From Octopus vulgaris (lineage: Eukaryota): 64,000 bases of DNA. The DNA lies in NCBI GenBank assembly GCA_951406725.2, contig OX597828.1, forward strand, positions 18,104,001 through 18,168,000, in the 5' to 3' direction. Each line of letters opens with the position of its first letter. Position 1 is the stretch's first letter. The position numbers and the translations under genes are program-made. Shown one piece after another: positions 14,620 to 60,535 of this stretch. Below the pieces are notes generated by a model. That model was given only the letters and a program-made list of their open reading frames with translations, did no database searches and was not told the DNA's origin.

Positions 14620-15284
14620 TTTTTTAATTCTGTTTCCATTTCTTGCCGAGTGTCTTCCTGACAACTAGGGCAGAGAAACCCGCTGTATACATTGATAAGC
14701 CATTAAAATAAACACATCAACTTGTCCATTTACAAAGTCATGGGATAGAGACAAAGTTCAAGAAAGACGGAAAGAAAAACGAAAAAAAGAATATAAGTAA
14801 ACAAAGAAAATAAAAAAGGAAAAGGAAAGAAAATTCACAGCGACAATGTACTTCCCAATACGTGAGACGTACGAGCTAAGACAATCTTTTGCACTTCTTC
14901 TATGGATGGCAAGCCAGGGATCATTCTTAAATAATTTTCAGTTCCTTTTCGATCATTCCAAGTGCTCCTACAACCACTGGTATTGTAACCGTCTTGAGAT
15001 GCCACATGTTTTCGATTTCGATGAGCAAATCTTTATATTTTCTGAGAGTATCAAATTCTTTTGCCGAGATATTATGATCAAAAAGTACGCTCATGTCAGT
15101 CAATAAACAGACTTTATTGTTTTGGTCTTTCACAACAATATCTGAATTGTTTCCTTTGATGGTCCGGTCTGTACATACTGGGAAGTTCCAAAGAATATTT
15201 ACAGTTTATTCCTCAGTTACAGCCTCAGGATGGTGCTCGTACCATTTGACTGCAGTTTTGATTTTATAATGCCAACACATTATG

Positions 15285-18629: not shown

Positions 18630-18711
18630 CTTTCCTGATGAGAAGATTGCATAATGCACCCTTTATTCCTTCGGAATAAAAGTATGCCGTCTTCGAAACA
18701 TGTGTCGAGAG
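18630..18711 (+). ncRNA. Type I hammerhead ribozyme with intact core
   Basis: Helix I CTTTC(18630-34)/GAGAG(18707-11); CTGATGA 18635-41; helix II GAAGA/TCTTC extended by GCATA/TATGC and TTTATTCC/GGAATAAA; GAAA 18695-98; minimal helix III AC-ATGT-GT; GUC triplet with predicted cleavage after 18706. Confidence 0.85.
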
Positions 18712-18923: not shown

Positions 18924-19505
18924 AAGGCGGCGAACTGGAAGAATCGTTAGCACACCGGGCGAAATGCGTAGCCGTATTTCGTATGCCGTTACGTTCTCTG
19001 TTCAAATTCCGCCGGGGTCGACTTTGCCTTTCATCCTTTCGGGGTCGATTAAATAAGTACCAGTTACGCACTGGGGTTGATAGAATCAACTTAATCCGTT
19101 TGTATTTCCTTGTTTGTCCTCTCTGTGTTTAGCCCCTTGTGGGTAGTAAAGAAATAGGTATTTCGCCTGCCGTTACGTTCTGAGTTCAAATTCCGCCAAG
19201 GTCAACTTTGCCTTTCATCCTTTCGGGGTCGATAAATTGGGTACCAGTTACACACCGGCGTCGATATAATCGACTTAATCCGTTAGTCTGTCCTTGTTAG
19301 TCCTCTGCGTTTGGCCCCTTGCCGGTAGTAAAGAAATAGGTATTTCGTCTGTCTTTAGGTTCTGAGTTCAAATTCTGCCGAGGTCAACTCTGCCTTTCAT
19401 CCTTTCGGAGTCGATAAATTAAGTACCAATCGTGTACTGCAGTCGGTCTAATCGACTGGCTCCTCCCCGCAAAATTTCGGCCCTTGTGCCTAGTGTAAAA
19501 AGGAT
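18924..19505 (+). mobile_element. SINE family A, trimeric copy
   Basis: One head followed by three tandem bodies (GTATTTCG...GTTCAAATTC...CCTTTCATCCTTTCGG.GTCGAT) of about 180 bp. Confidence 0.92.
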
Positions 19506-20785: not shown

Positions 20786-22063
20786 CACGGAGATGCAGAA
20801 GCGAAATATAGACATATACTTTTTATAACCCTATCAAGATTTACTTTCAGGTTCCTTCTCCCAAATTCACTCAGAGGCAAGAGTTTCGTTTGTTCGGGAT
20901 GATAGCGGGGGACATTAAGCCCAGCATACTGCCCTGCGGTCATAAACTCGAAACCACGTGGTTGATAATTGAACATCTCACCCACACAGCCAAGAATGTT
21001 TTCTCATTAGATGCCATCTTGTTGGCTGCCAAGAAGAAAGAAAGAACGAGAAAGAAAAGAAAGAAAGAAAAGACGGCAGCGAAACTATATGAAAGCAATC
21101 TTAAAGAGCATTGATCAGAGATTTTCCCCCCGATTATGCCGCTATAGTGGACTTCTTTGTAGTTTATCTCTATTTAAACAAGTCAGATTCAAAGAAGTAT
21201 AAGACATCGATTATCGTATTGTACAGAATAATCCAGTCTTAGTTTAACAGACTTACCACATGCCCTGTAATTAAAATGAGTGATAAATAATATATTCGAT
21301 ATTTTCTAGTGAATAGTGAAGTGTATACAATGCTACTTACGATGTTGTTGTTGTTGTTGTTTTTGCTAGTGCTTTTTTTTAACCCCACGTCAGACTTGAT
21401 CTGGCAGGCATATGGTTGAAAGGCGTTCCATTCGTGCCAGTGCCTGAGGTATTAGTCTCCGATAACTTTGGTATATTTGTGCTGTCTCTTTAAAATAGTA
21501 TGGCTTGCTTTCAGCAGATTTGGCTGCTATTCCCCGTATAAAGGCGATATCGGTGATTCGGTTACGGTCAAAGATGAGATATTGTTTGTGGTAAAGTATG
21601 AGATTTAATTTGTGGTCGAGGGCAACATTTTGTTCGGGTTAAAGTCTTTTGTCAGAAAGTGACATTTCATTTGGAATAAAGTTTGTAGTCAAACATGACA
21701 TTAACTTTGGGGTTATGATTGTGGTGAAGCGAGACTTTATGTGGTGGACAAGCGCGATATTTAATTTATGGTAAAAAATGGACACTTACTTTGTAATTTA
21801 GGCTGAAATTTAGGTAAGTCAAGATTAATTTTTGTGTGTTTGTTACCAAGAGTGATTTTGTTAAAGAGAAATATAATTAGTATGAAATTATGATGTATCA
21901 CTGACGTTTATTTGATTTTCTGCTCCACAACAACAGAAAGGGAAACATAAGCCCACTGACGTCTGAATAGCAACTATTTAACGTATACTTAGGGATATGT
22001 GGGTAGTCTTTTCGGCCTTTTCTTTATTTATAGCATCTAAAACTAGTGCATGGAATGAAAGTA

Positions 22064-22612
22064 CGAGAGTGAGTCAAAAAGTAATGCCATTTTGTTTAGG
22101 ACAGGTATAATTACCAACACAGGAACATGTATCATACACAAAAATTAAGCTGGTCCTCTGGGGATGACATCCCTACTTTTCAAGATATTCACCGTTTCTC
22201 TCAATAGCAATGTTCCAGCTTCGAATGAGAAAATGTATCCCGGCCCCGTAAAATTCTGGTGACTGTTCTTTGTGCCACTTCTTCACTACAGTTTTCACTT
22301 CCTCGTCACTGGAATAATGTTTACCCCTGAAACACTCTTTCATGCTGCCCAAGAGATGATAGTCCACTGACGAGGAAGTGAAAACTATAGTGAAGAAGTG
22401 GCTTAAAGAACAGTCAACAGAATTTTACGGGGCCGGGATACATGCTCTCATTCGAAGGTGGAACATTGCTATTGAGAGAAACGGTGACTACGTTGAGAAG
22501 TAGGGATGTGATCTACAGAGGACCAGCTTTATTTTCATGTATGGTACACATTCCTGTGTTGGTAATTATACCTGTCCTAAACAAAATGGCATTTCTTTTT
22601 GACCCACCCTCG
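22064..22612. mobile_element. Mariner-derived foldback MITE built from two inverted right ends
   Basis: TA flanks (22062-63, 22613-14); termini CGAG.GTG.GTCAAAAAG; arms of about 245 bp are diverged inverted copies that both encode the mariner transposase C-terminus (DYHL..SMKE..RGKHYSSDEEVKT.VKKW..EQS.EFY.AGIH.LIR.WNIAIERNG.Y.EK*). Confidence 0.92.
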
Positions 22613-24332
22613 TAATTATCTTGAAATTGGTAGCTAGTTCCTGGATGCTGGAAACAGAGGGAAATCCATTAAATATCCCCGAGAAAATCATGTTAATATG
22701 AACTGTACGAGGGTTAAGTCTACCAATCTATAAATCACAAAGCAAATGTCCATAAGTCCCTTTTGCTCATGCTACAAGTCTCCCAATTAAACACGCTAAA
22801 ATGGTACGACTATTTTAACGTAAAACCTGCTTGCCAGCTATTAGTTATTATAATCATTTAGGTAAAATGGAAACGGAGAAACTCTTTTGAAAATGTTGAG
22901 ATGAATAGATGTTATATTACGATATTTTTGATATCCATCCTGGAGTATACAGAATGGAGTTTCGATTTCCAAATTTCTTTACCACATACGCATTGGAAAT
23001 AATAAAAATAACAAAATTGCGCATTCGAAAGACATCTGATTGCGTGATGAATTTCTCAAAATTATAATATTTGATCCAGATAGGTGCCGACCTAAAAATA
23101 TACAACCATCTGAATTGGTTTAAATAGTCATGAAAGAATGCTACCTTAAGGCAGTTGAAAGAATTGTTCCGGGCTTTTTAACAGATATCACAGATCTAAT
23201 ATCACAGCCAGTGATACAAGCTCTATGCGGTTTCTCGATCTCCTAGAATGAGCAACGAAATCAGTCTGAAATCGCACGTTAACGTATTTAAAATTAAAAG
23301 ATAGGCTAGAAATTGTAATCTGGAAAAAATACAATGTTGGCGATCGGAATATCTTTGATCATAGGAATGTTGCCTATGACTATAGAAACATCAGAAAAAA
23401 ACAACAACAAAAAACAAAAAAAAAACGAAAACAAACACAGCGTCCATGATTCGATGACGTGACAGGGCTAACAAAACAGAAATGAAATCAGGAAGTTAAA
23501 TCACATGTAATAGCAATATAGAACTATCCGATGTCCAAAAGATACAATATTTAGAACGTCACATATAAAAAGGATATACAGAACATTTCCCTGTGTAGAT
23601 TAAAACAATAAATAGTCAGCTTTGTCGCAGGGAATGTTTAAAAAAGGCAAAAAACAAAAATGATAATAATAATAAGCAACTTGCATTGCAGATCGAAAAA
23701 AAAAATGGTGGATGCTGACCAATATGACGGTTGGTAATATATTCAATAACATATTAGAGTTTATAGCGTTAGAAGCGAAACAATTTTCTCTTTGAATATG
23801 AAACTATTCCCCACAAATCTACGCAAGCATCATGGCGAATTATGGTATTTTATGGTGTACCACGATGAAACGAATATAATATCGTAGTTATAGCTGTATT
23901 TGTGGAATACATGAATATAAAGTCCATTTACACAAATATCTCTTCAAAATGAAATACATTCTAAACGGCTTTGTAAAAGGGGTCTTCAATAGGGACATCT
24001 ATAAAAATATTTGTGAGACTTATCACTAAGACGTGTATATACACATATGCAACACACACGAACGCGTGCATGTTGTTGCCCCTATATATATGTGTGTGTG
24101 CGTGTGTGTATGTGTGTGTGTGCGGGTGTGAGTGTGTGGGTATGAATAGATATTTATATATATATATATGCACGTATGTATGTGTGTATGTCTGTATACG
24201 AATATGTATATTCATTTACAAACGCACACACACACACATATATATACACATGTGGATTTATATATATATATCTACATATGTGCATATATATAAATGTATA
24301 TATATATATATACACACACATATATATATATG

Positions 24333-33055: not shown

Positions 33056-34223
33056 CAGGGGTTGGACAAAATAATGGAAACGCCTAGCATCTTGAATCAT
33101 AATTTTGAAATATCCATAAAACCGTCAAAAGTTTTTTTTTTCATTTTTATGATATTTGATTTATTAGTGTTGCTTAACATGTTTTGCTAAAATTGCTGCT
33201 TCTTTTCAGATATCATCAGAAAAAGGTAATTAAAATTCATTGAAATGACAGATCTATCGGACTTCCAAAGAGGTCGAATTGTTGATGCTCGTATGGCAGG
33301 CGCTAGTGTAACGAAAACAGGCGCAATGTTTGGTGTATCAGGAAGTAGTCTCGAAAGTAATGATAGCCTTTGAGAAAGAGGGAAAAACCTCCTCATCAAA
33401 ACAAAACTCCGGAAGAAACCCAAAACATTCAGATAGAGATCATCAGAATCTTATGCGAATTGTTAGAAAGGATCACAAAAGTACAGCTCACAAAATTACT
33501 GCAGAGCTTAATGACCACCTCGAGAACCCAGTTACCACGAAAACTGTTCGCCGGGAGCTGCACAAAACCGGATTTCAGGGGTAGGCAGCAATCAGAAAAC
33601 CACTACTTTCAAAAACAAACGTTGCAAAGCGTTTAGTGTGGAGTAAAAACCTACAAAATTGGTACCTAGAGACAGCCAAAAGAAGCATTTGACGCAGACT
33701 GCCTTCTTCCAATTGTTAAACACGAAGGAGGAACTGTGATGATCTGGTGGGGCTATATCTTGGAAATCCGCCGGCCCAATGGTTTCCCTTCATGGCAGAA
33801 TTAATAGTCAAGTCTAAGCATTTTATCTGATCAAATTCATCCTATCGTTGTGGAACTGTTTCCGGAGGGAAATGCAACCTTTCAGGATAATAATGCACCA
33901 ATTCACACAGCTAAAGTTGTTACTGAATGCCACGAGGAACATTCTAGTGAAGTTGAACATCTTATCTGGCTACCACAGTCCCCAAACCTCAATATAATTG
34001 AACATTTATGGTGCATTTTAGAAAAACAAGTAAGGAGTCGATATCCTGCACCATATCATCACTACAAGAGCCGGAGACTGTTTTAGCTGAAGAATGGGCA
34101 AAAATTCCTTTGGAAAACAATTCAAATTTTGTATGAGGCCATACATTATAGACTTCAAGCTGTAAATACTGCTAAAGAAGGTCGTACCCCATATTAAAAT
34201 AAAATTATTTTGTGCAACTCCTG
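33056..34223 (+). mobile_element. Tc1-like (DD34E) DNA transposon, defective
   Basis: TA flanks; TIR CAGGGGTTGGACAAAATAAT / ATTATTTTGTGCAACTCCTG; broken transposase inside. Confidence 0.93.
33245..34197 (+). pseudogene. Tc1-like transposase pseudogene
   Basis: MTDLSDFQRGRIV.., NSGRNPK (GRPR-like), TVRRELH, KPLLS, VKHEGGTVMIW, FQDNNAPIH, WLPQSPNLNIIEHLW; has frameshifts, stop codons and a deletion of the first-Asp (SDE) segment at about 33670. Confidence 0.9.
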
Positions 34224-37450: not shown

Positions 37451-37604
37451 ATATTTACATGCATACATACTTGTATATACATATACACATACATTCACGC
37501 AAATATGGAAGTATATGCTTATGTAAAATTTGTAAATTAATAGCAACTTTATATGTGGTAATAGAACGGGCTTATGATGTACATATTTATATAAATATAA
37601 ATAC

Positions 37605-37654
<50 letters not shown>

Positions 37655-37867
37655 ATATATATATATATATAATTATTACATTATATAAAAGGGCTTAGTA
37701 AAATAAATTACTTTGCCGCATACTGAACTCATTAGAAATAGCAGCTAAAAAACTTTTTAAAACTATTTCTAATACTTAAAGAAAACCTCTCTCGTATAGT
37801 GCTTGCTCAACTCAACTCACGAAAGTTTGGGGGTAAAGACATCAAAAAATCAAATGCAAAGGTTATT

Positions 37868-37919
37868 TGAGAACGTACGTTTCAAGATTAGTCAACACGA
37901 CACTTCTATCATCAGCTCA
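37868..37919 (-). ncRNA. Type I hammerhead ribozyme (left-arm mirror copy)
   Basis: Exact reverse complement of 38376-38427. Confidence 0.72.
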
Positions 37920-38375
37920 GAAACTCCTTGGTTTGGATTTGAAAACACTGAAAGTGAGAGCATACTTTCGGCTTCTCATCGCTTTCGAAGATCTGCTCGT
38001 AACTAACAGTGCCAACAAACTCAAATATGCAAGCGAAGAATTTCTGTTCTCCCCTTTCCACCAGCGTGGGTTAAAATCAGCAAACACTATGCTTATTTCG
38101 GTAAAATCCGAAGCATTAATTAGAGGGAGATTAATCTCCCTCTAATTAATGCTTCGGATTAATCTCCCTCTAATTAATGCTTCGGATTTTACCGAAATAA
38201 GCATAGTGTTTGCTGATTTTAACCCACGCTGGTGGAAAGGGGAGAACAGAAATTCTTCGCTTGCATATTTGAGTTTGTTGGCACTGTTAGTTACGAGCAG
38301 ATCTTCGAAAGCGATGAGAAGCCGAAAGGGTATGCTCTCACTTTCAGTGTTTTCAAATCCAAACCAAGGAGTTTC

Positions 38376-38427
38376 TGAGCTGATGATAGAAGTGTCGTGT
38401 TGACTAATCTTGAAACGTACGTTCTCA
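38376..38427 (+). ncRNA. Type I hammerhead ribozyme (right arm)
   Basis: Helix I TGAG/CTCA; CTGATGA 38380-86; helix II U.U then AGA/TCT and GTC/GAC; GAAA 38412-15; palindromic helix III ACGTACGT; GUU triplet. Confidence 0.72.
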
Positions 38428-38542
38428 AATAACCTTTGCATTTGATTTTTTGATGTCTTTACCCCCAAACTTTCGTGAGTTGAGTTGAGCAAGCACTATA
38501 CGAGAGAGGTTTTCTTTAAGTATTAGAAATAGTTTTAAAAAG

Positions 38543-38586
<44 letters not shown>

Positions 38587-39438
38587 ATATATATGGTCCC
38601 TTTGTGTGGTGTGTGTGTATATATATATCCAATATTGTAAATTTAATCTCAGTCCATTCGTGTTACTGTGAACTTCCATGGTGAAGAGATTCGAGATAAG
38701 GCGAGTTACATTAATAATAACTGAGGTTGCCTGAATAGAAAAAAAAAGTATAGGTTGGTATTTTTGCTTGAAACTGCAGTATGCTGTTTATGGGTCTATG
38801 AAATTTCGTAAAGAAACCTGAACAAAACCCAAAGCTGAAAATAAAATCATAGAAAACCGAGACAAATTCAAGAAAAACGGTTCTTATCGGCTATTTTATT
38901 TGCCTTTATTTTTATAAATAAATTGCAAAATCTACCAAGGCATTAATTAGAAAAAAAAAATAAACGCCACAGTTTTTGTTTGGATATCAAATTACAAAGT
39001 TTCTCCTAATAACAACTTCTTAACTAATACCAATGGAGAATAAATAATATGAAATCCTACCTTATCTGTTTTAATGCTTCCAAAGTAGAAGAAAATTGCC
39101 AGGTATTAATTTCTTTAAATTGGCTTGAAATAGTGATTGAATATTCAAATAGGATAGACTGTTTCTCAGTAGTCTGCCAAACATAAAAACGCGCTCACGC
39201 ACACACATGTACACACCCGCGCGCTCGCGCGCTAAGCTCGCTTTCACTGTCGACATTGATGTGCAGGCATGTATGTACTCATGTATGTATTCGTGTATGT
39301 ATTCGTGTATGTGTATGTGGTAAGACGTCTATATGGGTGCGTTTTGTATGTGTGTGTACGCGGGTGTAAAAGTTTGTTTAATTATGCATTTCTGTTCCTT
39401 CTGCTTCCCGCTTTTTGTTTCTCACTACAAACAGACAC

Positions 39439-44799: not shown

Positions 44800-45640
44800 T
44801 CTACGTCGTCAACCATCGGACATGTGGAGGCACTAGAGCCAACAGGTGGGCTGCTCCGAGATGAGCGCTGCGCGATGAAAACCCTTTTGCCTGCACTCGA
44901 GCAGTGTCCGATTATTACTGACTTGTGGAGTAATGACTCACAACTGTTACCGCATGTGAGATGGATCCGACTATTGTCTGAATCCATCCTGAGCATCGCT
45001 CCACCACTCACAAGGCAAGACAGGCGATGTGCCTCTGTCTAGTAACTATGGCGAAAGAGGTTTTGCGATGGATGAGGAAATGACGGAGGGAAGACACTCA
45101 GCAGTACCTATTTCTTTATTACCCACAAGGGGCTAAACACAGAGGGGAAAAAACAAGGACAGACATAGGTATTAAATCGATTACATCGACCCCAGTGCGT
45201 AACTGGTACTTAATTTATCGACCCCGAAAGGATGAAAGGCAAAGTCGACCCCGGCGGAATTTGAACTCACAACGTAACAGCAGATGAAATACCTATTTCT
45301 TTATTACCCACAAGGGGCTAAACACAGAGGGGAAAAAACAAGGACAGACATAGGTATTAAGTCGATTACATCGACCCCAGTGCGTAACTGTTACTTAATT
45401 TATCGACCCCGAAAGGATGAAAGGCAAAGTCGACTCCGGTGGAATTTGAACTCACAACGTAACGCAGACGAAATACCGCTAAGCATTTCGCCCGGCGTGC
45501 TAACGTTTCTGCCAGCTCGCCGACACTCAGCATTACCGTCAAGCGCTTGGAAATGAAACTGAAGGTGAGGAGGAAAATGGTACTTTTTGAAAACACAGGT
45601 GACTGTCACAGAAATGTTTAGAGTAAATGACCCTTGATCC
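44800..45640 (+). mobile_element. L1/Tx1-clade LINE ORF2 3' remnant interrupted by SINE A
   Basis: KTLLPALEQCPIITDLW..LLPHVRWIRLLSESILSIAPP and CLVTMAKEVLRW resemble the ETxxHxxxxCP zinc-knuckle and C-terminal region of Tx1/L1 ORF2 (His mutated); continues after the SINE. Confidence 0.55.
45104..45521 (-). mobile_element. Young SINE family A, dimeric, with 11-bp TSD
   Basis: TSD GACACTCAGCA at 45093-103 and 45522-32; the two units of about 185 bp are almost identical. Confidence 0.95.
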
Positions 45641-51464: not shown

Positions 51465-51875
51465 TCCTTTCTAATCTAGGCAGAAGGCCTGAAAATTGTG
51501 GGGAGGGCAATAGGCAATGACATCAACCCCAGTGTTTCACTGGTACTTAATTTAGCGACACCGACAGGATGAAAGACAAAGTCGACCTCGTCGGAACTTG
51601 AACTAGGAACGTGGAGGCAGAACGTGGGGGCAGACGAAATACCTATTTCTTTATTACCCACAAGGGGCTTAAACACCGAGAGGACAAACAAGGACAAACA
51701 AACAGATTAAGTCGATTATATCGACCCTAGTGCGTAACTGGTACTTATTTAATCGACCCCGAAAGGATGAAAAGCAAAGTCGACCTCGGCGGAGTTTGAA
51801 CTCAGAACGTAGCGTCAGGCGAAATAACAATAAGCATTTCGCCCTGCGTGCTAATAATCCTGCCATCTCACCGTC
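51465..51875 (-). mobile_element. SINE family A, dimeric copy
   Basis: Two reverse-strand bodies (GGATGAAA.(G/A)CAAAGTCGACCTCG). Confidence 0.88.
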
Positions 51876-51995
51876 TTATTTATATTTAAGTATATATATG
51901 TGTGTGCGTATGTCTGTATGTGTGTGCGTGTATGTATGTATGCATGTATGTATGTATGTATGTATGTATGTATGTATGTAGGTAGGTAGGTAGGT

Positions 51996-52221
51996 AGAGC
52001 TGGCAGAAACGTTAGCACGCCGGGCGAAATGCTTAGCAGTATTTCGTCTGCGTTACATTGTGAGTTCAAATTCCGCCGAGGTCGACTTTGCCTTTCATCC
52101 TTTCGGGGTCGATAAGTTAAGTACCAGTCACGTACTGGGGTCGATGTAATCGACTTAACACCTATGTCTGTTCTTGTTTGTCCCCTCTGTGTTTAGCCCC
52201 TTGTGGGTAATAAAGAAATAG
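51996..52221 (+). mobile_element. SINE family A monomer flanked by (TAGG)n
   Basis: GAGCTGGCAGAAACGTTAGCACGCCGGGCG...AAAGAAATA(GGTA)n. Confidence 0.92.
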
Positions 52222-52926
52222 GTAGGTAGGTAGGTAGGTAGGTAGGTAGGTAGGTAGGTAGGTAGGTAGGTAGGTAGGTAGGAGGTAGGTAGGTATGTAG
52301 GTAGGTAGGTAGGCAGACAGGCAGGCAGGTATGCGTCCACGACTACATTAACTCGGGCTTCTACGCTTGCAACAATTCAATGAAATGAAAGACGAGGAGA
52401 TTCAGCCGCTATTTCTAGCAACCAGCGTAACAGGCTCGTTATTTCAGCTTGTTCGTAGTATCACACTGGGGCAACATGCCCTGCAGTTTGTTGTTGCTGT
52501 TGATGATTTTAGTAGTGGTGATGTTTAGTTTCGCAGAACTATGAGAAGAGTCATTCCAGAAGTGACCATCCCATTTTATTTTAAGTCATAGCATGTCTAG
52601 GAATACATTATCCAATGTGTTGTCCCTTCCTTTTAGATCCTAGGGTGTGAATCGAGGTCGGTTTAGCTGCCGTTTCTACAAGGCGTAGAACAATATCCAC
52701 AGGGACAATCTTAGCTTGTTAGACAAAGGGTAGAGAAAGAGAGAGAGGGAAAGGGAGAGAGAGGTGGGAGAAATATATTCATACATACACACATACATTC
52801 ATACTTATGCATTTGTAAATATATACATGTACACAAATATAGATGCAAGCGTACATAATTCTTCCATATCAGCTTTATGCATATGTACACATACATACAA
52901 ACTCGCTTACACATAATAATAATAAT

Positions 52927-60164: not shown

Positions 60165-60535
60165 TTTTATTACCCACACAATAAACATAGAGGGGACAGA
60201 CAAGGGCAGACAAAGGGATTAAGACGGTTACATCAGTGCATAACTGGTACTTAGTTAATCGACTCCGAAACAAGGAAAGGCAAAGTCGACCTTGGCAGAA
60301 TTTGAACTCAGAACGTAACTGCAGACAAAATACCTATTTCTTTACAACCCACAGTGGGCTAAACATAGAGTGGACAAACAAGGACAAACAAACGGATTAA
60401 GTCGGTTACATCGACCCCAGTGCGTAACTGGTACTTATTTAATCGACACCCCGGAAGGATGAAAGGCAAAGTCGACCTCGATGGAATTTGAACTCAGAAC
60501 GTAGCGGCAGACGAAATACCACTAAGCATTTCGCT
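60165..60535 (-). mobile_element. SINE family A, dimeric, head truncated
   Basis: Two reverse-strand bodies (GAAAGGCAAAGTCGACCT, GAATTTGAACTCAGAACGTA). Confidence 0.88.

Follow-up and report, generated by a model that had tools for sequence, protein, structure and literature searches.

A near-perfect palindrome with outward-reading hammerhead motifs in Octopus vulgaris DNA and its probable origin by Penelope-like insertion

Introduction

The copies that Penelope-like elements (PLEs) leave in a genome have been described with an inverted, 5'-truncated partner, a tail of 30–40 bp and a preference for (TA)n as target (PMC8557442). In Adineta vaga, the elements Pen2a, Pen2 and Pen3a contain inverted pLTRs with palindromes at the junctions and a one-sided tail, and self-priming was proposed for the formation of these palindromes (PMC3846280). 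The minimal hammerheads of PLEs are marked by a stem I of 4 bp, an extra nucleotide after A9, a short stem III and a palindromic loop 3; the G10.1–C11.1 pair is described as highly conserved, and in Schistosoma paired minimal hammerheads are found on opposite strands at a distance of 100–700 bp (Cervera & de la Pena 2014, PMC4209133). The purified PLE protein of the Poseidon element PAc of Anolis cuts both strands of AT-rich DNA and, with uncleaved RNA as the template, initiates cDNA synthesis at two internal positions of that RNA, both 3' of the hammerhead (Frangieh et al. 2024, PMC11167929). Animal retrozymes have been proposed as non-autonomous derivatives of PLEs (bioRxiv 10.64898/2026.07.22.740005), and the axolotl hammerhead HHR_Amex2, which has a U.U mismatch, shows weak cleavage alone and better cleavage as a dimer (PMC7229834). 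For Octopus vulgaris, 31 recently active Penelope-like families were reported (PMC13282606). Here, we describe a palindromic locus in a window of 64,000 nucleotides of Octopus vulgaris DNA (the whole stretch that was analysed) and compare its arms, its centre and its ends with these systems.

Results

Structure of the palindrome and its flanks

The window contains no N and has the character of animal DNA with many microsatellites and SINE-like repeats of octopus-like appearance. The palindrome spanning 37746–38549 was found to be its longest and most perfect inverted repeat. When the left arm (37746–38132, 387 nt) was globally aligned with the reverse complement of the right arm (38161–38549, 389 nt), there were no substitutions and one gap of 2 nt, exactly as an earlier note made from the letters of this DNA had claimed. 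The gap corresponds to a CC behind position 37964, which is present in the right arm and missing from the left arm. The sole perfect-palindrome axis (arms of at least 5 nt) within 38100–38200 is located at 38132/38133 and has arms of 28 nt, and a 28-bp unit is doubled exactly next to it, with 38133–38160 being identical to 38161–38188; the zero-spacer axis and the exact 28-bp tandem repeat reported in the earlier note were thus confirmed. The arms can alternatively be drawn as 37746–38136 and 38157–38549 around a loop of 20 nt, and this drawing is the predicted lowest-energy DNA fold of the palindrome centre.

Together with an extension of 75 bp that is present on the left only (37671–37745, minus strand), the left arm forms a 462-nt piece (37671–38132, minus strand) of a hammerhead-bearing repeat family and reads outward from the centre. 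The right arm (plus strand) likewise reads outward and contains 389 nt of the same family. The insert has (TA)n on both sides: the palindrome is flanked by (TA)n/(TG)n tracts followed by mutually unrelated sequences, and the left flank (37583–37670), a (TA)n/(TG)n microsatellite which is the presumed target, gave no non-simple match to the right flank. A search for a second copy of the arm elsewhere in the window found none.

On the right side, a (TA)n tract (38550–38592) separates the arm from 12 nt (38593–38604, plus strand) that continue the repeat family past the end of the left arm. These 12 nt precede position 37671 in a contig of run X9, and they recur here in the orientation of the right arm with one match in the window. 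The shuffle rate for the 12-nt word with one mismatch allowed was 0.23 per 128,000 positions, from which the probability of any of 19 such words matching within 60 nt is about 0.002 at most. The 12 nt may be a remnant of the true right end or tail, and the right end of the insert may lie near 38604 rather than at 38549. The left extension reaching a TA tract and the right arm running into (TA)n were as the earlier note had them, but its placing of the right insert end at 38549 may need correction. One possibility is a right arm that formerly extended about 26 nt farther than the left one and whose inner portion gave way to the TA tract; the other is that the 12 nt are an older remnant at the target. 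When the end is counted from this remnant, the insert is flanked by an exact 20-nt direct repeat (37645–37664 and 38609–38628, plus strand), which could be a TSD and is indistinguishable from chance, being of low complexity and a word that occurs five times in the window.

Hammerhead motifs in the arms

The hammerhead core CTGATGA...GAAA is present at 38380–38415 on the plus strand and in mirror position at 37915–37880 on the minus strand. The right type I minimal motif (38376–38427, plus strand) has its predicted cut after 38423, and the left one (37868–37919, minus strand) has its predicted cut after 37872. The motif comprises a 4-bp stem I and the core CTGATGA (38380–38386), to which one extra U is added; its stem II (3+3 bp) has U.U at the base and is followed by GAAA, and a short stem III carries a palindromic GTAC loop and a GUU triplet. 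A type I descriptor, which was composed after the motif had been seen, found three sites in the window, one in each arm and a weak one at 18635; in 20 simulated sequences of 64 kb, its mean number of hits was 0. Rfam gave no match in the window at the gathering score and 41 matches at E<=10, none of them a hammerhead; the top ones were generic miRNA-hairpin models below threshold, which match because the sequence is palindromic. The claim of an outward-reading hammerhead in each arm is upheld by the descriptor, and the lack of an Rfam match counts against it. The weak descriptor match (18631–18710, plus strand) has a long stem II region and a sequence unlike that of the palindrome, and is possibly due to chance. 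A second, degenerate hammerhead considered at ~38310–38330 was rejected, as the core is absent and the descriptor gives no match there.

The predicted fold of two copies pairing through the palindromic loop reached -21.6 kcal/mol as compared with 2 x -4.9 kcal/mol for the single copies. The monomer is predicted to be weak and would need a dimer or the help of a protein. Seven of the 40 listed substitutions of the repeat family (16 further) fall within the motif, and among those listed none affects an invariant core base or stems I and III. The seven are located at N7, at H17 (U to A), twice in loop 2 and once in the internal loop, and two of them change C-G to U.G and U.U to G.U.

Coding content

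A stop-free frame of 112 codons runs antisense through the right arm. A frame of this length was reached in 10 of 3,000 shuffles and in 54 of 3,000 Markov sequences, and 35 family variants within it comprised 26 missense, 6 silent and 3 stop changes with no third-position bias. Its sole match among 1.84 billion representatives was a fish Pyrin-repeat protein, where 10 repeated stretches summed to an E of 5.6e-07. A coding role of this frame was rejected, because the variants add stops without third-position bias and the lone Pyrin-repeat match is attributable to chance. The Pfam search with seven translated arm pieces gave nothing above the curated cut-off, and a search for a longer protein with one of the three sense frames (38161–38403) gave 0 of 91 candidates, which is weak evidence. 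An ATG within the hammerhead core meets a stop after 6 codons. As far as seen in these frames, the repeat unit appears to be non-coding. No ORF for RT or GIY-YIG was present in the arms or in the window ORFs scanned, and no such gene tied to the repeat family was found, which counts against its membership in PLEs.

Other repeats and frames in the window

An older self-inverted element of ~560 bp with 86% arm identity is located at 22059–22617, and we take it to resemble a MITE with long terminal inverted repeats. The region 33312–34086 (plus strand) holds a broken remnant of a Tc1/mariner-type transposase, with Pfam HTH_Tnp_Tc3_2 and DDE_3 in separate frames. A 92-aa frame at 14927–15205 (minus strand) has no Pfam match and presumably resembles the C-terminal endonuclease of an R4/Dong-type retrotransposon. 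Tandem units of ~185 bp belonging to a SINE-like family were observed at 18974–19457, 45105–45477 and 60182–60520, and SINEs also occur as inverted pairs, for example at 51640–52224.

The repeat family behind the arms

Of the 24 runs listed, 20 contained the arm sequence or part of it; these 20 represent 9 studies under 3 organism labels, and one of them may be the source sample. For four of the 24 runs, contigs were aligned to the left arm and the centre (reference 37664–38200), giving 3,175, 301, 1,180 and 127 contigs, respectively, whose summed depth is not a copy number. Further copies of the arm, on which the earlier note had made its reading depend, are thus plentiful. The contigs were mostly less than 99% alike to the reference; in run X1, 1,070 of the 3,175 were at 99% or above. 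Judged from these contigs, the arm represents part of a repeat family that is both abundant and diverged. The absence of any substitution over 387 aligned nucleotides between the two arms, set against contigs that are mostly below 99%, points to one source copy for both. No RNA run is among the listed runs that hold the sequence, and the survey is uninformative on expression. Pattern scans for family copies with their flanks gave 0 in metagenome_contigs (2 scans), viral_contigs and genome_contigs, as expected for an animal repeat.

The contigs help to tell what belongs to the family and what is particular to this locus. All seven listed contig pieces spanning 37965 have two gap letters against the left arm, and five more are clipped there. 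Therefore, the loss of CC appears private to the left arm, and the right arm carries the family-normal CC; the loss may have arisen by mutation, by an RT slip or as a homopolymer error. Twelve contigs in X1, two in X2 and two in X9 continue past 38135 with different letters, which places the axis at the middle of ATTAAT (38130–38135), a self-complementary 6-mer natural to the family. At the centre, the turn-around and the 28-bp repeat start after the same AAT, and the extra copy of the 28-bp unit (38133–38160, plus strand) has the same AAT/ATT microhomology at both of its junctions. Other copies of the family in X2 and X9 run on beyond 37671, and the 75-bp extension is therefore repeat-family sequence and not the family end. 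The "short tail" of the earlier note is less well supported in this respect, and the extension is about twice as long as the published 30–40 nt. Contigs crossing the axis at 38132/38133 or linking an arm to its flank were absent among the 32 listed (4,782 further), and contigs assembled from short words are not expected to extend across a palindrome or TA tracts.

Joints in other copies

Five joints were listed for run X1, each in a single contig; four of them leave the arm at an internal point and enter inverted sequence at 38130–38175, and one switches strand. The inserted letters in two X1 joints are the reverse complement of the natural continuation of the family, which makes these two head-to-head junctions at other loci, and in them one partner begins 2 and 8 nt beyond ATTAAT. 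The detection of joints is biased towards the axis region, as 38133–38200 was the only inverted stretch in the alignment reference. In run X2, three listed joints comprised two internal skips and one step back of 408 with 152 letters between. Record 17 of X2 shows a head-to-tail junction of ~560 bp with no room for an ORF; this one contig covers only part of the ~560-bp unit, and the part covered has no hammerhead in it. On the question raised by the earlier note, whether other copies share the axis, the X1 contigs have head-to-head joints near this site, but the positions of the joints vary between copies.

Discussion

We consider it probable, at roughly 0.7, that the palindrome is a pLTR-type PLE unit (a solo pLTR or a retrozyme) which was inserted into (TA)n by PLE machinery in one insertion. 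The inverted-pLTR reading of the earlier note is supported by the type of hammerhead, the (TA)n target, the head-to-head arms with their unequal outer ends, the abundance of the family and the further joints, and is less well supported as regards the short tail. Membership of the family in PLEs is likely, with a linked RT/endonuclease gene lacking.

In such an insertion, a Penelope-like element would supply the endonuclease that cuts AT-rich DNA and the reverse transcriptase, and on either side of the cut cDNA synthesis would begin at its own position 3' of the hammerhead. The outer ends of the arms lie 126 and 201 nt 3' of the predicted cut site, and two different cDNA start points would give the unequal outer ends that are seen. 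This asymmetry is 75 nt, or ~26 nt the other way with the 12-nt remnant as the right end. Arms that keep the motif intact and reach their ends in (TA)n at these distances fit what was found for the purified PLE protein, with its two internal start sites and its use of uncleaved RNA (PMC11167929). The synthesis of cDNA would stall at ATTAAT, a single slip-back of 28 nt on the AAT/ATT microhomology would produce the duplication, and the two strands would join through the self-complementary ATTAAT to leave an axis without spacer. We infer the stall, the slip-back and the joining through the 6-mer from the arrangement of the centre, and the fold-back of one cDNA at ATTAAT is a close alternative. 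Hairpin self-priming, which had been suggested for this locus in the earlier note, is less well supported, since a zero spacer on ATTAAT would fit the annealing of two DNA ends at least as well; two annealing ends suit it somewhat better than a fold-back because a hairpin needs a loop. The same note had called the insertion "very recent", for which the identity between the arms is the sole basis, and gene conversion within the palindrome could maintain that identity too. The 12 nt at 38593–38604 are not fully accounted for by insertion through PLE machinery and count against it. In all likelihood, the copy at this locus is inert. By energy, cruciform extrusion and dsRNA would be possible.

A more specific account is that a hitherto undescribed hammerhead retrozyme family of ~560 nt, very abundant in a cephalopod-like genome, lands as head-to-head palindromes through two cDNAs which stall at a single fixed ATTAAT and anneal there, so that the locus would record second-strand synthesis by PLEs. 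The cDNAs would be primed from both target strands, and the 28-nt slip-back and the turn-around would have taken place at the same nucleotide. On the right side, a 12-nt start would be followed by (TA)n reiterated in a telomerase-like manner, after which the enzyme would re-engage upstream. We regard this account as distinctly unlikely.

The palindrome could also have arisen after insertion. The family would then be a tandem retrozyme or satellite, and the inversion would have been made at the DNA level by a template switch at a stalled fork or by fold-back repair of a break at ATTAAT. We judge this to be unlikely, while giving weight to the ~560-bp head-to-tail unit of X2 record 17 with no room for an ORF, to the 3–6-nt microhomology at both central junctions and to the axolotl retrozyme, which is a precedent for a U.U hammerhead (PMC7229834). 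However, the tandem unit is known from a single contig, which may hold a partial tandem of some longer PLE, the inversion is limited to element sequence with the left flank outside it, and head-to-head joints recur near the same site at other loci. Furthermore, the right arm has the family CC that the left arm lacks, and therefore it was not simply copied from the left arm as it now stands. A read-foldback, an amplification chimera or an assembly artefact is a further possibility. Near-perfect palindromes are a recognised class of artefact, and homopolymer errors are typical of long reads; here the lone arm difference falls in a C homopolymer, and the axis is spanned by none of the listed contigs. 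An artefact nevertheless seems very unlikely. The mirror ends within the element, beyond which the flanks are unrelated to each other. The 12 nt that continue the family on the right have no counterpart on the left and therefore cannot be its mirror image, similar head-to-head joints are found in contigs of a public run, and the 28-bp duplication requires a second jump.

Inverted arms in a TA context would also be expected of a foldback or MITE-type DNA transposon having the arms as its long terminal inverted repeats, and the older palindrome at 22059–22617 has a similar look. In such an element the termini would be equal and every copy would have the same internal arrangement, whereas in this family the two ends differ by 75 bp, other copies run past both ends and the joints lie at different positions. 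Moreover, a hammerhead motif that tolerates variation and the presence of a head-to-tail junction are typical of retroelements, which leaves a DNA transposon highly improbable.

The inverted-pLTR layout and the paired minimal hammerheads on opposite strands are already published (PMC3846280, PMC8557442, PMC4209133), and if real, the palindrome is one more case of a layout that PLEs routinely leave. The palindrome also points to an abundant hammerhead-bearing family, and in the literature listings searched we found none described for cephalopods; the words "octopus" and "cephalopod" occur 0 times in PMC7229834. Repeat libraries or supplements may hold it, and the library behind the 31 recently active Penelope-like families of Octopus vulgaris (PMC13282606) may already include this repeat.

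Compared with the PLE units of Adineta vaga, the locus has the same head-to-head inverted copies, the palindrome at the junction, one longer end and an AT-rich or (TA)n target. It differs in having no ORF in or between the arms, an asymmetry of 75 nt in place of 30–40 nt, a 28-bp unit duplicated exactly and in tandem at its axis, no identified autonomous partner and a TSD candidate of low complexity. With the minimal hammerheads of PLEs it shares the type I form, the 4-bp stem I, the extra nucleotide after A9 and the palindromic loop 3, and its paired hammerheads, 465 bp apart, fall within the 100–700 bp of Schistosoma; it is set apart by its stem II, which has U.U at the base where G10.1-C11.1 would be usual and is interrupted (3+3 bp), in place of 7–8 bp. 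The likeness to animal non-LTR retrozymes lies in a unit that is non-coding, low in GC and very abundant and that carries a single type I hammerhead, in one ~560-bp head-to-tail junction and in the U.U mismatch of HHR_Amex2. In contrast to them, the locus is an inverted pair and not a tandem, and each arm is shorter than the ~560-bp unit; the word "inverted" occurs 0 times in PMC7229834. The ORF of PAc begins at stem II, whereas the ATG in the core of the present motif runs into its early stop. The mechanism proposed for the palindrome is borrowed from PAc, namely the double-strand cut, the two initiation sites and the uncleaved RNA, and the centre of the palindrome, with two jumps at one site and zero spacer, bears on how PLEs make their inverted half, by fold-back or by the meeting of two cDNAs.
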